Shown: positions 54,425-64,000 of the stretch, one piece after another
Layout of the letters: every line of letters begins with the position of its first letter
How positions within the stretch are numbered: position 1 is the first letter of the stretch
Source of the DNA: Candidatus Eiseniibacteriota bacterium
Lineage (GTDB): Bacteria > Eisenbacteria > RBG-16-71-46 > CAIMUX01
DNA: 64,000 nucleotides
Direction of reading: 5' to 3'
Assembly (NCBI GenBank): GCA_020633975.1
Contig: JACKCR010000009.1
Span: 155,119-219,118, forward strand
The notes under the pieces: model-generated
Databases searched by the model: none
The model's input: the letters and a program-made list of their open reading frames with translations, nothing else
Told to the model about the DNA's origin: nothing
Translations under genes and position numbers: made by a program

Positions 54425-54694
54425 ATGACGACGATGGCACTGACGCTGCCCGACTTCGTTCTCGGTTGGATCGAAGAACAGGTGCGATGTGGTCGAGAGG
54501 TGTGCGTCTCCGACTACCTCGAGGAGTTCGCGCGTCGCGAGAGGATCCGGCGCATGCGTACCCGGATGGAGGAGCTGCTCACGAGTGGGCTCCGTCGGGA
54601 GGAGTTGGTTCAGGCGACGCCGGAGTATTGGGAGCGGAAGCGGGTGGAGTTGGCACGAGGACGAAGTACGCATCCGCCCGATCCCGTTCGATAG
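54425..54694 (+). CDS. ParD/COG3609-like ribbon-helix-helix antitoxin (apparently orphan)
   Basis: MALTLPDFVLGWIEEQVRCGREVCVSDYLEEFARRERIRR is paralogous (about 45% identity) to the ORF at 63625. No intact ParE/RelE-like toxin ORF follows. Confidence 0.65.
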   Translation: MTTMALTLPDFVLGWIEEQVRCGREVCVSDYLEEFARRERIRRMRTRMEELLTSGLRREELVQATPEYWERKRVELARGRSTHPPDPVR

Positions 54695-57765: not shown

Positions 57766-58593
57766 CTAGGCGGCTTCGCTCCTCAGCCCGACTCCTCCGC
57801 AGTGTTCCCGACACACCTCGTAGTACGTCCGGTGGACCGTCACCAGCGCCTCGCGACTGAGGCGTGCTTGAGGCTGTGGTAGGACGACGTGCTGTCCGCT
57901 CGTGGCTTGGTCGATGCGGTCACCGAGTGCGCGAGCGACGCCCTTGCCGATCACGATGGTGAAGCTCGGCGAGGCTTCGCGCACGACGTCACGGACGTGC
58001 AGATCCCAGCTCGTTTGGATCGCGAGACGTTGCTGTGCCGCACTTGGCTTTGTTCCGCCGGGTCGGTAGAGGGCGACGATGCTCGCGTCGACGAGCCAGA
58101 CGCCGCGTTCGCGGAGTTCCTCGAGTAGTTGGAGTTTCCGCCTGATGCGCCTCTCGTACGTCGTGTGCGACTTCAAGACTTCGATCGGGCTCTTGGTCGA
58201 CGAGGACGTGGCCAGCGGAGTTCGGCCTGCGATGTCGTTCACGGAGCTCCAGAGGAGCTTCCAGAACTGGGGTGAGCCGTTGTTCATTCGCGATCTGGAG
58301 GTGCGAGTAGGTGTGGGCATCGGGTGGCCGATGTATCTCGGCTCTCCGTATCCGAGGCAGTAGATGAATCGTGCGAACGTGTCGGGGAGGTCACCGAATC
58401 GCGGCTCGTCGGCACCGCGCATCTCGACGAGTTCGTCCTCGTCCGTGAAGACGTGGGATTCGGCGAGGAGGAGGACGCTTGGATGCGCGGGACGCCAATG
58501 CTCTCGGTGGGCATCGACGGCTTGGACGGCGAGCCAGGAGTCGGCGTGGCCTTCCAGGATGGCGGCGACTCGATCGTAGGTGTCGCGGTTCAC
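57766..58593 (-). CDS. Hypothetical protein (276 aa, GTG start) downstream of the McrBC-like pair
   Basis: The GTG at 58593 is preceded by AAGGAGGAGG (8-nt spacer). No family recognised; no signal peptide. Confidence 0.5.
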   Translation of the reverse strand: MNRDTYDRVAAILEGHADSWLAVQAVDAHREHWRPAHPSVLLLAESHVFTDEDELVEMRGADEPRFGDLPDTFARFIYCLGYGEPRYIGHPMPTPTRTSRSRMNNGSPQFWKLLWSSVNDIAGRTPLATSSSTKSPIEVLKSHTTYERRIRRKLQLLEELRERGVWLVDASIVALYRPGGTKPSAAQQRLAIQTSWDLHVRDVVREASPSFTIVIGKGVARALGDRIDQATSGQHVVLPQPQARLSREALVTVHRTYYEVCREHCGGVGLRSEAA

Positions 58594-58752
58594 GGGTGGG
58601 GCCTCCTCCTTGTTGGTATCGACAGGGCGAGGAGGGTTGCGGCGTTTGGTCGAGGGAGGAGGCTTCGACCCCAGCCGGACATGGGCCGAACTCCTTCGCC
58701 GTTTTGCCGCGAAAGCGGAACGACCGATCGTGTCTGTACGCGGATGATCTGC

Positions 58753-58815
58753 GATGGCTGAGAATGCCCCCATTTTCGACCATTGGATGGCTGAGAATGG
58801 GGGCATTTTCGTGCA
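58753..58815. repeat. Two 27-bp direct repeats, GATGGCTGAGAATG[CCCCC/GGGGG]CATTTTCG, whose 13-bp cores are reverse complements of each other (12-bp inverted repeat AATGCCCCCATT / AATGGGGGCATT)
   Basis: Read from the sequence at 58753-58779 and 58785-58811. Lies in the 345-nt gap between the McrC-like gene and the 276-aa gene. Confidence 0.55.
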
Positions 58816-58938
58816 CTGGAGGGGGTGTCTACCGTTCAGAAACGTCAAGAGACCGGGACGGCTCGTTGGGTGTGCTTGGGAACGCACCGATACCGCGACT
58901 TCCAAGCCCGGCCCGACGGCGCCCCGACGAGAGCCGGA

Positions 58939-60162
58939 TCAACCCAAGCGACCGACCCGCCCACCCTCATCACCGACACCTTCCAACGGCAACGCCCGAA
59001 GCATCTCCCGCCCCGCCTTCTCCAGATCCCCCGACAGGTCGAACGTCAGCGTCCGGAACTCGATCGAACCGACCGTGGTCTCGACAGGATGTTCGAGGGG
59101 GCGAGGGTAGATGAGCCCGGACTGTTTGCAGCCGAGCGACTCGGCGTAGGCGATGACCTGTTGAACGTCCTCTGACGCAGGGGCCCCCGGCTTCTTGTAC
59201 TTCGTGTCGAGTACGAGTACGGGGGCGCCGAGTTCACGATCGTGGATGACTAGGTCCACGAGGAAGCGGAGCACGCCTTCCCGATCGAGACCGACCGCTT
59301 GCTGCTCTCGTAGCTCGTACCTCGAAGGCAGGTTCTGTCGTAGCCAAACAGCGACGAACTTCTCGAACAGCTTGGCCATGTCGACCAGGAACGGAAGCAT
59401 CCTGCGATCGCCGAAGTCGTGCGTGGGACCAGTGTGGTCCAAGAAGAACCGACAGAGGGCGTGCATCGGTTCGTAGTCTTGGTTCAGCCGGTTGTAGGTT
59501 CGGCCTCCACAGTTCGGGCCGGTGTAGGGCACGAGTCGTGCCGCACCCTGAACACATCGAAACGCGCGACGCACGGTGGGCGCGATCCGAGGCGAACAGA
59601 TTCCGCTACGGCAGATTAGGAACAGCGTCCACGCGAGGATCTGGTTCTCCTCGAGATCGCTCGTGTGCTCTTGGTAGGCGCAGTCCAGCGTGACGTCCCA
59701 GGGTCGCCGGAGTACGCGGTCGACCTGGAGCGAGCCTCGGACGTAGGGAAGACGATCCTCTTCTGGAACGTACGAACGGTAGAGGCCGGCACGGGAGCGG
59801 TCGAGAACACGGAGAGCGAGGACGTTGGCGAGTCGCTCGTAGTACTCCTCGATACTGGTGACCGTCGTCGATCCGTCGAGGATCTCGATCTCGATGTCGT
59901 ACGCGTACTCGAGCATGCGGAACAGGTTCGCGATCGGAACCTTGGGCAGTAGAGAAAGGCCGAGACCTTCTTCGATGGGAATGAACCCGACCCAACCATT
60001 GGAGGTCAGCTGCCAGCGGCCGTCCGTCTTGAAGGACGGCGTGTCGATCGAGACCTGGGACCGGTAGTTGTCGTAGAGGTACTTGCCTGCCGTCTCGGAG
60101 ATCCGACCGGCGTCGACTCCGAGGGGTTGGTACTCGACCAGTTCGAGAACTTTGGTCGTCAC
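58939..60162 (-). CDS. McrC-like PD-(D/E)xK nuclease subunit
   Basis: About 400 aa; C-terminal LVDLVIHD...VLDTKYK (D...D-x-K) nuclease motif. 4-nt overlap with the upstream McrB-like gene. Confidence 0.72.
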   Translation of the reverse strand: MTTKVLELVEYQPLGVDAGRISETAGKYLYDNYRSQVSIDTPSFKTDGRWQLTSNGWVGFIPIEEGLGLSLLPKVPIANLFRMLEYAYDIEIEILDGSTTVTSIEEYYERLANVLALRVLDRSRAGLYRSYVPEEDRLPYVRGSLQVDRVLRRPWDVTLDCAYQEHTSDLEENQILAWTLFLICRSGICSPRIAPTVRRAFRCVQGAARLVPYTGPNCGGRTYNRLNQDYEPMHALCRFFLDHTGPTHDFGDRRMLPFLVDMAKLFEKFVAVWLRQNLPSRYELREQQAVGLDREGVLRFLVDLVIHDRELGAPVLVLDTKYKKPGAPASEDVQQVIAYAESLGCKQSGLIYPRPLEHPVETTVGSIEFRTLTFDLSGDLEKAGREMLRALPLEGVGDEGGRVGRLG

Positions 60163-63014
60163 AGCCCAAAACGCTCCCGAACACTATTCCAGCTGAACTT
60201 CTCGAGCCGGTCGGGACGATCGAAGAAGTACTCCTCCAGGTACGGGTGGATCTCCATCCGCCAGATGTCTTCGATCTGAGTCGTGAGGTCCTCGCGGAGG
60301 AAGAACGTCACGCCAACCTCGTAGTTCGGATCCGCAATCGCATGGTTGAGGTCCTTGAGTACGCTGAGAAGCGGCTCGACCGAGTATCCGGTCGACCTCG
60401 TCTCGTGGAACCGGCGAAGTACGGTGAAGTCGGGGCGAAGCTCTAAGAACGCGAACCGTCGACGAAGGGCGTGATCGACGAGAGCGATCGAGCGGTCGGC
60501 CGTGTTCATCGTCCCGATGATCCGAACGTTCCTGGGAATGGAGAAGCGACGCCGGCCGCCGGCGAGTGGGATCTCCTGATCGCGGTACTCGAGTAGGTAC
60601 ATTAGCTCGCCGAACACTCGCGACAGGTTGGCACGGTTGATCTCGTCGATGATGAGGACGCAGGTGTCCTTCCTCCGACGAGCCTCATCACAGAACTCGA
60701 GGAGCCTTCCCGGAACCATCTCGTACGCTACGGATCCGTTGTCGTCGACAGTCGGGCGGATCCCTTGAATGAAGTCCTCGTACGCGTAGGACGGATGGAA
60801 CTGGACGAGGTCCTGAGTACCCGTCCCGCCGCCGATGAGATGGCGTGCCAGTCGTTCCGCGATGAAGGTCTTCCCGGTTCCGGGAGGGCCGTAGAGGATC
60901 GCCTGTCGCTTCCGAGCCAATGCGCGGACCCAGCGTTCGAGCGTCTGGAGCTCGAATCCAGTTTCTGCGGCACACTCTTCGAGCGAGTACTCGGGGTTCG
61001 TGTCGAGCTCATCAGACTCGCCGAAGTAATCCGAGATCGCGACGGAGGGATCGGACTCGACGGCGACCAGAATCAATGGGAACAAAGCCTCGAAGAGCTC
61101 GACGACTCGATCGATGAGCTCGTCGGCGGCGAGCCGAAGTACGTCCGCGGTAGGGATCCGACGTCGGATACTGGAATCGAGTGACGCAATCTGTTCGGAC
61201 CAGGCCATCCAGTCGGTGGTACCACTGCCATCAGCCGTCGACTCGGCGCCAAACAAGAGCGTCTCCTTGCCGAAGAGGCTCTGAAGCGTGGGTGAGACTC
61301 TCATAGGACGCTCGGAGAAGTACCGTGTGATCCGCTTGCGTTCCGGTCCCGCGTGATCCCCGAGACCGAATCCGAAGTCCAGGCAGTCATGTCCAAGAAC
61401 GATGAACAGCTGGGCACCGCTCGTTCGCTTGTCGCCCTTGGGATAGAAGGCACCCCAGAGGAAGTCCCACGCTCCTCCGCGCCCGTAGTCGTTCTTCAGG
61501 ATCTTCGAGAGAATGCCCTTCTCCGTTTCCATCCGCTCCAAGATCGACTCGGGGAGACGTGCCGCCACCCGCTCCAAGAGTGTCCGCAGCGGTTGCTCGA
61601 CGTAGGTCCGGATGTCGTCCTTGTGCTCGTGGTACGTCTCCTTGACCGGATTGGCATGAAGCAGTCTCAGGAGTTCGAACGTCCGCGGCGTGAAGAGCGC
61701 GTTTTCTACGGACATGGTGGATGGGTCCTCACTGTCCGAGTCACTACTGTCCGATTCATTACTGTTCGAGTCCTCACTGTCCGAGTCTCCCTCCTCGGCC
61801 TTCTTCGACTTCTGCTTGCCTTCGATTGAACGCGATACGACCCACAGGAATCCCTGCAGATCGATCATGTCGGCCGGTTGATACGTCGCCAGCTCGGACT
61901 CGAGCTGCCGCGCCAAGTCGAGCACGAAGGCGTATGCCTCCTCGGTCGGTCGACCACGGAAAGACTGATCGAAGCCAAGCAGTTCGGTGAACCGTTTGAG
62001 GTGGCTCGGCTTCATGAAGAACTCCGACTCCGGATGGACGAGGAACAAGAGGTACGTGGGGAAGGTCCACTTGTTCGGCAGGCCCTGCGCCTCCACCCAG
62101 TCCACATAGCGAGCGAGTCGCGTCGGGCCGTCGCCCGATCCATAGAGGAGGCCGAAGAGTCGATTGCAGAAGGCAGCCTTGTCGAGCCCGTCATGCTCGA
62201 GGATCGAAAGATCACCCCGCGCGGGTACCGAGTTGTAGAGAAGGTTGGTCTTGTGCGCGACGGTTCTGATCCGCTTCAGGATCTCCTCATGATCCGACGC
62301 CGTGATCAGCCGGGAGAGTTCGTCTTCCGAGAGAAGCTCTCTGGCCAGTTCGGAGGCCTTCCGCTTGTAGGTCACTTCGTCTGCGAGGAAACGTTCGTCC
62401 TCGAACCCGGACCACTCGGGATACCGCTCGTTCACCAACTGTAGCGCTCGCTCGAGCCGAGTCCGAGACAGTCCGTGTTCCACGTAGCGCGGGTTCGGAA
62501 GTGCTCGGCCCAACGAAGCGGACAAGTACTCGATCGATGCCTGCGTGTGGGCTTGGTAGAACCCGGTGCGCTTGACCAGTCCGGCGATCTGTCGCGTGGC
62601 GGATACGCAGCTCGCCTTCAGCAGGGGGAGTGCTTCCAGTACGTTGGCAAGTGATCCCTGGTAGTAGTCGAATCCGGTGTGGGCTCGGTAGGGTCGCGGC
62701 CCGTCGAGAGTTTCGAGCGCCATTCGAGAGGAGTCCGGAAGTTCCGTGGGCACAACCAGGCCGACTTTCGGCCCAGGGCCGACGATCTGGAACGCGACGA
62801 CCTGACCGACATTCAGTCGTAGTGTCGAGATTCGTGACCTCGCGGTAAGACCCCACGAAGCGGGATTGACCTCGTTCGCGGTGACGATGAGATCCGCGAG
62901 GAGAGACTCGATCTGGGAGCGTTGCTCCGGATCGGGGATCAGCGATGCGATGAGCTTCGCGGGATCGTTGAGCGGACGCGTCGTGGGGTTGGAAGCGGGC
63001 ACGGAACTGGGCAT
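60159..63014 (-). CDS. McrB-like AAA+ GTPase (951 aa) with an approximately 650-aa N-terminal extension: unassigned N-domain, poly-acidic Ser/Asp linker, DUF2461-like region
   Basis: C-terminal LYGPPGTGKTF (Walker A), LIIDEINRAN, and the McrB-diagnostic IIGTMNTADRSIALVDHALRRRF (NTAD replaces NKxD). The ATG at 63014 is preceded by AGGAAGG. The DUF2461 resemblance (…GAWDFLWGAFYPKGDKR…) is from memory and unverified. Confidence 0.8.
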   Translation of the reverse strand: MPSSVPASNPTTRPLNDPAKLIASLIPDPEQRSQIESLLADLIVTANEVNPASWGLTARSRISTLRLNVGQVVAFQIVGPGPKVGLVVPTELPDSSRMALETLDGPRPYRAHTGFDYYQGSLANVLEALPLLKASCVSATRQIAGLVKRTGFYQAHTQASIEYLSASLGRALPNPRYVEHGLSRTRLERALQLVNERYPEWSGFEDERFLADEVTYKRKASELARELLSEDELSRLITASDHEEILKRIRTVAHKTNLLYNSVPARGDLSILEHDGLDKAAFCNRLFGLLYGSGDGPTRLARYVDWVEAQGLPNKWTFPTYLLFLVHPESEFFMKPSHLKRFTELLGFDQSFRGRPTEEAYAFVLDLARQLESELATYQPADMIDLQGFLWVVSRSIEGKQKSKKAEEGDSDSEDSNSNESDSSDSDSEDPSTMSVENALFTPRTFELLRLLHANPVKETYHEHKDDIRTYVEQPLRTLLERVAARLPESILERMETEKGILSKILKNDYGRGGAWDFLWGAFYPKGDKRTSGAQLFIVLGHDCLDFGFGLGDHAGPERKRITRYFSERPMRVSPTLQSLFGKETLLFGAESTADGSGTTDWMAWSEQIASLDSSIRRRIPTADVLRLAADELIDRVVELFEALFPLILVAVESDPSVAISDYFGESDELDTNPEYSLEECAAETGFELQTLERWVRALARKRQAILYGPPGTGKTFIAERLARHLIGGGTGTQDLVQFHPSYAYEDFIQGIRPTVDDNGSVAYEMVPGRLLEFCDEARRRKDTCVLIIDEINRANLSRVFGELMYLLEYRDQEIPLAGGRRRFSIPRNVRIIGTMNTADRSIALVDHALRRRFAFLELRPDFTVLRRFHETRSTGYSVEPLLSVLKDLNHAIADPNYEVGVTFFLREDLTTQIEDIWRMEIHPYLEEYFFDRPDRLEKFSWNSVRERFGL

Positions 63015-63624
63015 GGAACAGAGCCTTCCTGGTCGGAGTCCGGGTCGCTGTTCTGACTGTCGGGATGATCGGCACTTGGGGGCCGAGATGCTAGGTCTGA
63101 TCGGACCAGGCCCCGCCGTCCCCAAATGGAGTATCGGCTCGAGCATTGGGGATCTGGCGTCGATTGGGGATTCGGCCGAAACGACCAGATTGTCGGCTGG
63201 CATTTGCCGAGATGCGGAAGGGGCAAAGAAAATGCAGCCGGGCGGGCCGAAGCCCAACGAACCGCGTTTCCGCAGCCCTCCCAACCGCATTCCTAGTCTC
63301 CGGAATCCGAGCAATGGGTGTCAAGCACCCGGACCGCGTGAGCTCTCTGCGCCTCCCGACTCCATCCAACAACGATGGTCGGCCAGGGCTGTTGCTTCGG
63401 CCACATCGACGTGGAGGATGGGCGCGATGACCGGACCAGAACGCTGTACTCGAACTGCTCCTCCAACGTCACATCCAATCCGGATGTGATCCGCAGTGTA
63501 ACGCGTCGGACGTCGGTGTTATGCGACACGGACTCCCAGTGCTGGGACTCCGGCTGGCCCTTGACAGCAGATGGCATCTATTGTGGATGCTCTGGCGTGG
63601 ACCATCCAGGGGAGGCCTCCATAG

Positions 63625-63903
63625 ATGACGAACATGAACATCTCTCTCCCGGAACCGATGCGCGCCTGGGTGGAAGACCAGATCCGACAAGGTCGGTACG
63701 GCGATGCCAGCGAGTACGTCCGCGATCTCATCCGTCGCGATCAGGAGAGACTGACCCAGGACCGGCTCGAGCAACTCCTACTCGAGGGGCTCGAGAGCGG
63801 TGAGTCGCTCGATGTCACTCCCGAGTTCTGGGAACCGAAGCGTCGCGAAGTGGTCGCGCGGGTGCGGGAGCGGGCGAAGGGCCGGACGGAGTCGGGTGGA
63901 TAG
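63625..63903 (+). CDS. ParD/COG3609-like ribbon-helix-helix antitoxin; the partner toxin presumably lies beyond the window end
   Basis: MNISLPEPMRAWVEDQIRQGRYGDASEYVRDLIRRDQERL is a typical ParD N-terminus. GGAGG lies 9 nt upstream. Confidence 0.72.
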   Translation: MTNMNISLPEPMRAWVEDQIRQGRYGDASEYVRDLIRRDQERLTQDRLEQLLLEGLESGESLDVTPEFWEPKRREVVARVRERAKGRTESGG

Positions 63904-64000
63904 AAGGATCGGTCCTGCCGGTAAGGGACCTCGGCGACATTGTCGAGCACGTTGTTTCTCATCTGACAATCGAAAGCCGAGTCCCATAGCCGGTAGCGCC

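Follow-up and report, generated by a model that had tools for sequence, protein, structure and literature searches.

A 64,000-nucleotide window of contig JACKCR010000009.1, from a Candidatus Eiseniibacteriota bacterium, carries near its right end, on the minus strand, two overlapping genes that encode a homolog of the McrB GTPase (63014..60159, 951 amino acids) and a homolog of the McrC nuclease (60162..58939, 407 amino acids). We consider it likely that these two genes by themselves constitute a GTP-dependent restriction system of the McrBC type (Type IV-like), a member of a large clade in which McrB carries a DUF8426 domain together with variable modules, and that a DUF2461-like domain acts as its reader. 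Because the layout recurs in about 2,000 clusters of related proteins, it is an unstudied variant of the known McrBC system and not a one-off. A preliminary description of this DNA, made from the sequence alone, had already proposed a Type IV restriction-like defence module, and this proposal holds, the system being of McrBC type with both its GTPase and its nuclease intact.

The McrB-like protein consists of four domains and an acidic linker, as judged from the open reading frame (ORF), its start, and homology to McrB. Its C-terminal domain, the AAA+ core and lid of an McrB GTPase, was assigned from McrB homology and motifs (residues 675–951 with the stop codon; 60159..60992, minus strand). 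The motor motifs are Walker A GPPGTGKT (residues 709–716; 60867-60890), Walker B LIIDEINR (787–794), MNTAD of the NxxD type (836–840; NTAD at 60495-60506), and LRRRF (850–854). BLASTP aligned the motor with E. coli K-12 McrB at 32% identity (E 8e-57) with every motif in register, including the Walker A, the Walker B (DE), the NxxD signature, and the arginine fingers by which McrB is recognized. The NCBIfam McrB model matched residues 675–940 (E 3e-49) with a score of 168, which lies below the equivalog cut-off of 637 and is in line with a distant homolog, and Pfam AAA_5 was also matched (E 3.6e-22). The lid family PF28529 (McrB_lid) is recorded on the NCBI protein of 518 amino acids that is identical to residues 434–951 (P0001), and PADLOC identifies the AAA part alone, under the label "REase_II." A MoxR-like AAA+ identity, which had been named among the findings that would overturn the assignment, was ruled out, and the "textbook" McrB GTPase of the preliminary description is thus confirmed by alignment.

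The start codon of mcrC is the GTG within the GTGA that terminates mcrB, and with this 4-nucleotide overlap mcrC is translationally coupled to mcrB. Pfam McrBC (PF10117) was matched over residues 54–353 of McrC (E 2.6e-40), the protein having an N-terminal region of the McrBC/DUF2357 type, and D303, D319, and K321 (about 59200-59256, minus strand) align with the catalytic D/D-A-K of E. coli McrC. The D...D-x-K nuclease motif is therefore intact, so that the overlapping PD-(D/E)xK nuclease initially read from the letters alone is real, and the possibility that the motif would vanish on alignment is disposed of. No promoter-like or terminator-like signals above the shuffled expectation were detected. 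In its GC content by codon position, mcrBC matches the remainder of the window, and its composition thus gives no hint of recent transfer.

The mcrB ORF begins at an ATG (63014) with AGGAAGG upstream; the frame stays open in the 5' direction to a TTG at 63314, and the N-termini of homologs lie near the ATG at 63014. The NCBI record, however, calls a start at M434, and one could suppose that the main or an additional product is this form of 518 amino acids, which comprises the DUF2461-like domain and the GTPase, the upstream 433 codons being untranslated or belonging to a minor long isoform. Consistent with this, the internal ATG of M434 (61715) has GAGGA 10 nucleotides upstream, and E. coli mcrB is likewise annotated as yielding a short product from an internal start, McrB-S. 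Yet the 951-residue frame is open with no stop and has an upstream AGGAAGG of its own, residues 1–433 encode two well-folded domains (predicted local distance difference test score, pLDDT, of 88 in the model), and dozens of homologs from other phyla keep the N-terminal domains in frame with the GTPase, encoding them, as here, as a fusion in a single ORF. We take the 951-residue form to be real because its fused N-terminus is conserved in homologs, and find the supposition improbable; a short isoform from M434 analogous to E. coli McrB-S is possible.

The N-terminal ~670 residues were divided into units by BLASTP and by alignments against 23 homologs. What had been described as one unassigned domain of approximately 330 amino acids proved to be two, N-ext (about residues 15–175; 62490..62972, minus strand) and an all-helical domain (residues 182–400; 61815..62471, minus strand). 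In an AlphaFold2 (AF2) model of residues 1–410 (pLDDT 88.4), N-ext is an alpha/beta domain of the order a-bbbb-a-bb-a (mostly >85), and residues 182–400 are all-alpha (>90). N-ext belongs to no Pfam family. A first search for it returned two homologs only, and a later exhaustive profile search added 17 more members; 18 members of the family align and share the motifs NPxSW, RLNVG, RTPY, and LPxPxY. In most members N-ext precedes the all-helical domain, but in three (P0109, P0135, and P0149) it follows that domain, between it and the motor, and N-ext is a mobile module within this McrB family. Weak Foldseek leads of N-ext to YjbR and to the C-terminal domain of T4 MotA were not relied on.

Residues 182–400 are 36–48% identical to the extreme N-termini of ~20 McrB homologs that carry a precomputed match to Pfam PF28530 (DUF8426), and P0001, which contains residues 434–951 only, is without this match; by inference from these homologs we therefore assign residues 182–400 to DUF8426, which is the signature of this McrB clade. 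The polar residues E213, K217, N257, D268, R299, K335, D382, D385, and Q387 are invariant in the alignment. A profile of the DUF8426 alignment found no match among PDB sequences. Weak Foldseek leads to the archaeal Ogg/MagIII glycosylases were not relied on, and an identity as an HhH-GPD DNA glycosylase was rejected: the best Foldseek E values were 0.23–0.7 with a target-normalized template-modelling (TM) score of 0.34–0.42, no PDB sequence of this kind was matched at E<=10, and no GhG hairpin motif was seen by eye in the alignment. Between DUF8426 and the next domain lies the acidic Ser/Asp/Glu linker (residues 403–433, net charge -9; 61716..61808, minus strand), whose sequence EEGDSDSEDSNSNESDSSDSDSEDPS at residues 406–431 is the poly-acidic Ser/Asp stretch reported previously. 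It is not common to the homologs, and a short linker stands in its place in a locus of the same domain order (L005).

The domain that directly adjoins the motor (residues 434–670; 61005..61715, minus strand) was assigned from alignment, family DUF2461 matches, and a model as a divergent DUF2461 domain with the YktB/DUF1054 fold. The DUF2461 match of this protein is weak when taken alone (E 0.04 for the full protein and 0.0014 for the isolated domain; 14–19 bits against the curated cut-off of 22.8), but DUF2461 was matched in 10 of 10 aligned family members (best E 4.4e-8), and one homolog (P0008) passes the curated cut-off with 23.4 bits. The DUF2461 resemblance noticed at the outset is thus real at the level of the family, and these matches identify residues 434–670 as a divergent DUF2461 member at superfamily level. 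The most conserved motif of the domain is KNDxGxGGxWxxxWGAxYPKGxKR. The model of residues 434–680 (pLDDT 79.5, predicted TM score 0.81) begins with helices at the N-terminus, which are followed by a sheet of three to four strands, then by a helix and a strand, and finally by a long helix. Foldseek against the PDB placed B. subtilis YktB (2a8e, DUF1054) first (E 2e-6, TM 0.64/0.75) and another DUF1054 structure (3mqz) second (E 3e-4), followed by many chains of McrB-N, the DNA-binding domain at the N-terminus of E. coli McrB (E 7e-3 to 0.3, probability up to 0.84). Among PDB sequences, the profile of the DUF2461-like domain matched 2a8e alone (E 0.018).

The YktB/DUF1054 fold is the published closest structural neighbor of E. 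coli McrB-N, and several further observations bear on the relation of the two. The BLASTP alignment with E. coli McrB extends from the motor into McrB-N, pairing residues 506–540 with 35–69, and its register sets the invariant W520 opposite W49 of E. coli McrB, which is a pocket and phosphate-clamp residue. In the same register, the most conserved motif of the DUF2461-like domain falls on strand 1, the DNA "finger" loop, and strand 2 of McrB-N. Independently, hhalign picked the register of BLASTP (506–538 against 35–67 of E. coli McrB), at a probability of 0.1–0.3% and hence without significance. The model thus speaks for a probable fold-class relation of the DUF2461-like domain to McrB-N, and homology to the MrcB_N family is not supported by sequence comparison. 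None of MrcB_N/DUF3578 (PF12102), EVE, YTH, SRA, PUA-like, and Mrr_N was matched by Pfam in the N-terminal region at E<=0.1, and hhalign was significant neither for N-ext against MrcB_N nor for N-ext against the DUF2461-like domain. The earlier statement that the N-terminal region replaces the usual reader is accordingly right in that the ~670 residues bear no catalogued reader signature at the sequence level (no Pfam match, and hhalign against MrcB_N below 1%), but a domain whose fold (YktB, E 2e-6) neighbors McrB-N may not replace the reader at all.

The extent of the clade was examined by a DUF8426 profile search among 1.84 billion representatives, clustered at 50% identity, which gave 1,991 clusters at E<=1e-3 and 1,125 at E<=1e-10. 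Most of these ~2,000 clusters, which come from uncultured bacteria and archaea, are McrB fusions. When one genome per species was scanned, 53 related loci were obtained, all from metagenome-assembled genomes and spanning Acidobacteriota, Verrucomicrobiota, Chloroflexota, Gemmatimonadota, Methanothrix, Asgard archaea, and others. An McrC homolog lies directly downstream of the McrB homolog in about 34 of the 53; where none was seen the contig mostly ends too soon, and a few of these loci have divergent C-terminal regions. All-against-all clustering of the neighboring ORFs of the 53 loci found no conserved third gene, only McrB, McrC, and overlapping shadow ORFs being present in more than four loci, and therefore we regard the system as one of two genes, a pair that is kept together across phyla. 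The DUF2461-like domain stands before the GTPase in about 27 of the 53 loci, so that about half of the relatives keep it directly in front of the motor, and the full order of N-ext, DUF8426, DUF2461-like domain, GTPase, and McrC is found again in L005 and P0103, while L006 has it with an insert. The "novel target-recognition architecture" of the preliminary description is accordingly novel with regard to function but not rare. In the literature we found no paper dealing with DUF8426, none joining McrB with DUF2461, and none that assigns DUF1054 or YktB a function.

The scaffold is modular. Its minimal members are composed of DUF8426, a linker of 20–45 amino acids, and the GTPase, and amount to about 530–560 amino acids (also in L043 and L047). 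Other members carry an EVE domain, either before the motor (P0021, P0040, and P0154) or between DUF8426 and the motor (P0078, P0111, and P0118), an Mrr_N domain (P0021), or an MrcB_N domain (P0096, P0047, P0120, and P0170). DUF8426 is also found with DUF7662 (P0150) and with DUF7669 (P0090) at the N-terminus. In three loci (L030, L032, and L035), the GTPase of the DUF8426 protein is divergent or was not detected, and the gene that follows is an ORF of ~577 amino acids common to them. This ORF has a D...D-x-K-like motif and may encode a very divergent partner of the McrC type.

By analogy with the E. coli and Thermococcus McrBC systems, McrB would assemble into GTP-bound hexamers, two of which would be bridged by McrC; hydrolysis of GTP would drive translocation along DNA, and McrC would cut it. 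The DUF2461-like domain adjoining the GTPase is, judging from its fold and position, the candidate target-binding (reader) module. We favor it over the other domains because of its fold neighborhood, because its most conserved motif coincides with the region of McrB-N that holds the finger and the pocket, and because it occupies the slot in which EVE and MrcB_N stand in other members. N-ext is probably a second, shuffled nucleic-acid-binding module, and DUF8426 would be the constant platform of the scaffold. Since DUF8426 is the sole N-terminal domain of the relatives of ~530–560 amino acids, it may itself bind DNA.

Several results weigh against this proposal. Members of the DUF2461-like family are strongly acidic (net charge -13 on average, median isoelectric point 4.9), and DUF8426 is acidic as well, which is unusual for DNA binders. 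The Foldseek matches to McrB-N have low TM scores (0.25/0.36) and E values of only about 1e-2, the likeness to MrcB_N has no support in sequence (the hhalign probability given above was obtained against an alignment of six MrcB_N sequences), and the model of residues 1–410 has no significant match in the PDB (best E 0.23) or among the viral structures of BFVD (best E 0.07), and hence none to any DNA-binding protein. DUF8426 is fused also to a KAP NTPase (P0163) and to other, unrelated P-loop proteins; together with its association with DUF7662 and DUF7669, this means that the domain is not exclusive to McrB motors and may be a general sensor rather than a DNA reader. No experiment has been reported on any member of the clade.

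These points make a serious rival of the idea that the N-terminal modules are regulatory or sensor domains, which would, for example, sense a small ligand such as a nucleotide, or else a phage protein, or would autoinhibit the GTPase, with the contact to DNA made elsewhere. Each of the three N-terminal domains is neutral or acidic, sequence comparison with MrcB_N was unsuccessful, DUF8426 occurs with other NTPases, and its invariant polar residues could form a ligand-binding or active site. On the other hand, DUF8426 is the only domain besides the GTPase in the minimal relatives, and some element for target binding is required in an McrB; readers known for modified bases (EVE, MrcB_N, and Mrr_N) are inserted into this scaffold, an indication that the enzyme is directed at nucleic acids; and the DUF2461-like fold neighbors McrB-N. 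On balance we judge a purely regulatory role unlikely, and retain the DUF2461-like domain as the probable reader.

To the right of mcrB, partly past the end of the window, are genes for ParD, for two secreted-type proteins, and for a Dcm methylase with an overlapping ORF of 241 amino acids and Vsr. The last three are seen on a sister contig of 10.8 kb from NCBI (L001), which is 99.7% identical to window positions 58960-64000; its positions 418-2757, past the right end of the window, encode the Dcm-type C5 DNA methylase (E 3.8e-48), the overlapping 241-residue ORF without family, and Vsr. They probably form a 5-methylcytosine type II restriction-modification unit with a mismatch-repair companion. 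The presence of a Dcm-type methylase about 5 kb from mcrB implies that the McrBC system tolerates that methylation. This proximity of methylase and Vsr on the sister contig could also be taken to mean that the system is a sequence-specific, modification-independent McrBC relative of the LlaJI, LlaI, or BsuMI type paired with a methyltransferase, and a branch of McrB associated with methyltransferases was indeed described in a census of McrBC systems (PMC11090510). But neither a methyltransferase nor any third gene is conserved beside the 53 related McrBC loci, the Dcm gene and mcrB have three unrelated genes between them, and the operon has two genes as opposed to the three- or four-gene layout of LlaI and LlaJI, so we attach very little credence to such a pairing and keep to a two-gene McrBC-type system.

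On the other side of the module, 343 nucleotides downstream of mcrC, lies an ORF of 276 amino acids (57766..58596, minus strand), which the preliminary description had included in the defence module. It encodes a conserved protein of a large family without Pfam domain (591 matches of about 250 amino acids each) and had no match in PDB, Pfam, PADLOC, or NCBIfam. As a partner of the system it was rejected, since tblastn found it in 0 of the 53 related loci and two of its homologs stand in contexts unrelated to McrBC, namely an island with integrase, AlpA, and GmrSD_C (L058) and a urease operon with TIR genes (L059). Its layout recalls a uracil-DNA-glycosylase, an impression gained by eye only. 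Farther to the left are genes of housekeeping and regulation, which encode a tetratricopeptide repeat (TPR) protein, a sigma-54 activator, a protein with a PRC barrel, a SpoIIE phosphatase, and an RND (resistance-nodulation-division) efflux pump.

The edge of the module has some features of its own. About 130 nucleotides past the mcrC stop, two tandem units of 33 nucleotides (58753-58818) form a near-perfect 24-bp hairpin with the arms 58760-58783 (GAAAATGCCCCCATTCTC) and 58787-58810 (GAAAATGGGGGCATTCTC); it is unique in the window (0.01 chance matches expected) and partly conserved in the sister contig, and it may serve as a terminator or be bound by a protein. The sole divergence of the sister strain lies next to it, at and after the end of mcrC (58811-58960 in the window, 10664-10732 in L001), where the stretch of the sister contig is shorter and different and where the last nine residues of McrC differ between the two; it looks like a local variable spot at the module edge. 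Small ORFs of ParD/CopG-like antitoxins are found at 63625-63903 (plus strand) and 54425-54694 (plus strand), the first being ParD_antitoxin in the sister contig, and no ParE-like partner for them was seen within the window.

It is the targets of their N-terminal readers that define McrBC enzymes; with every new reader came a new specificity and, in many cases, a reagent of use in mapping DNA modification. If the DUF2461-like domain does bind DNA, it would open a first way to the function of the DUF2461 and DUF1054 families. Going further, one may tentatively suggest that the whole DUF2461/DUF1054 (YktB) superfamily of widespread small proteins is a nucleic-acid-binding, possibly modified-base-binding, fold related to McrB-N, and that the DUF8426 platform lets one motor combine two or three readers, a combined signature being needed before cutting; we hold this to be possible but doubtful. 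EVE, MrcB_N, N-ext, and the DUF2461-like domain change places around a constant DUF8426, and a scaffold of this kind provides natural variants with which the coupling between reader and motor could be probed. Our view of Type IV restriction in general is left unchanged by the DUF8426-McrB clade.

Among known systems, E. coli K-12 McrBC (EcoKMcrBC, Type IV) is similarly encoded by two overlapping genes, mcrB followed by mcrC, and shares the Walker A, Walker B, NxxD, and RRRF motifs of the motor (at the 32% identity given above) and the D...D-x-K of McrC. Judging from the model, the domain adjoining the motor would also resemble E. coli McrB-N, by way of the YktB fold, in its helix-sheet-helix-strand-helix topology. 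Unlike E. coli McrB, which has 459 amino acids, the protein described here has 951, lacks the MrcB_N/DUF3578 sequence signature, and has N-ext, DUF8426, and the acidic linker in addition. Closer to it are the clade members bearing EVE, MrcB_N, or Mrr_N (for example P0021, P0040, and P0096), which have the same DUF8426 and an McrC partner, the GTPase being up to 60–68% identical in related loci, but these carry a recognized modified-base reader where our McrB has the DUF2461-like domain. Residues 434–670 share their fold with YktB/DUF1054 (2a8e, 3mqz) and DUF2461/TIGR02453 and have family-level matches to DUF2461; those proteins are small and stand alone, whereas in our McrB the domain is joined to a restriction motor and shows a motif of its own, KNDxGxGG...WGAxYPKG. 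CoCoNuT, the branch of McrBC predicted to target RNA, likewise combines McrB and McrC homologs with elaborate extra domains, and its GTPases have an NxD motif and long coiled coils (PMC11090510). A CoCoNuT identity was ruled out by the NTAD (NxxD) of the present motor and the lack of a long coiled coil in the models of residues 1–410 and 434–680. The fusion of McrB homologs to diverse, uncharacterized domains is already a documented theme (PMC11090510).

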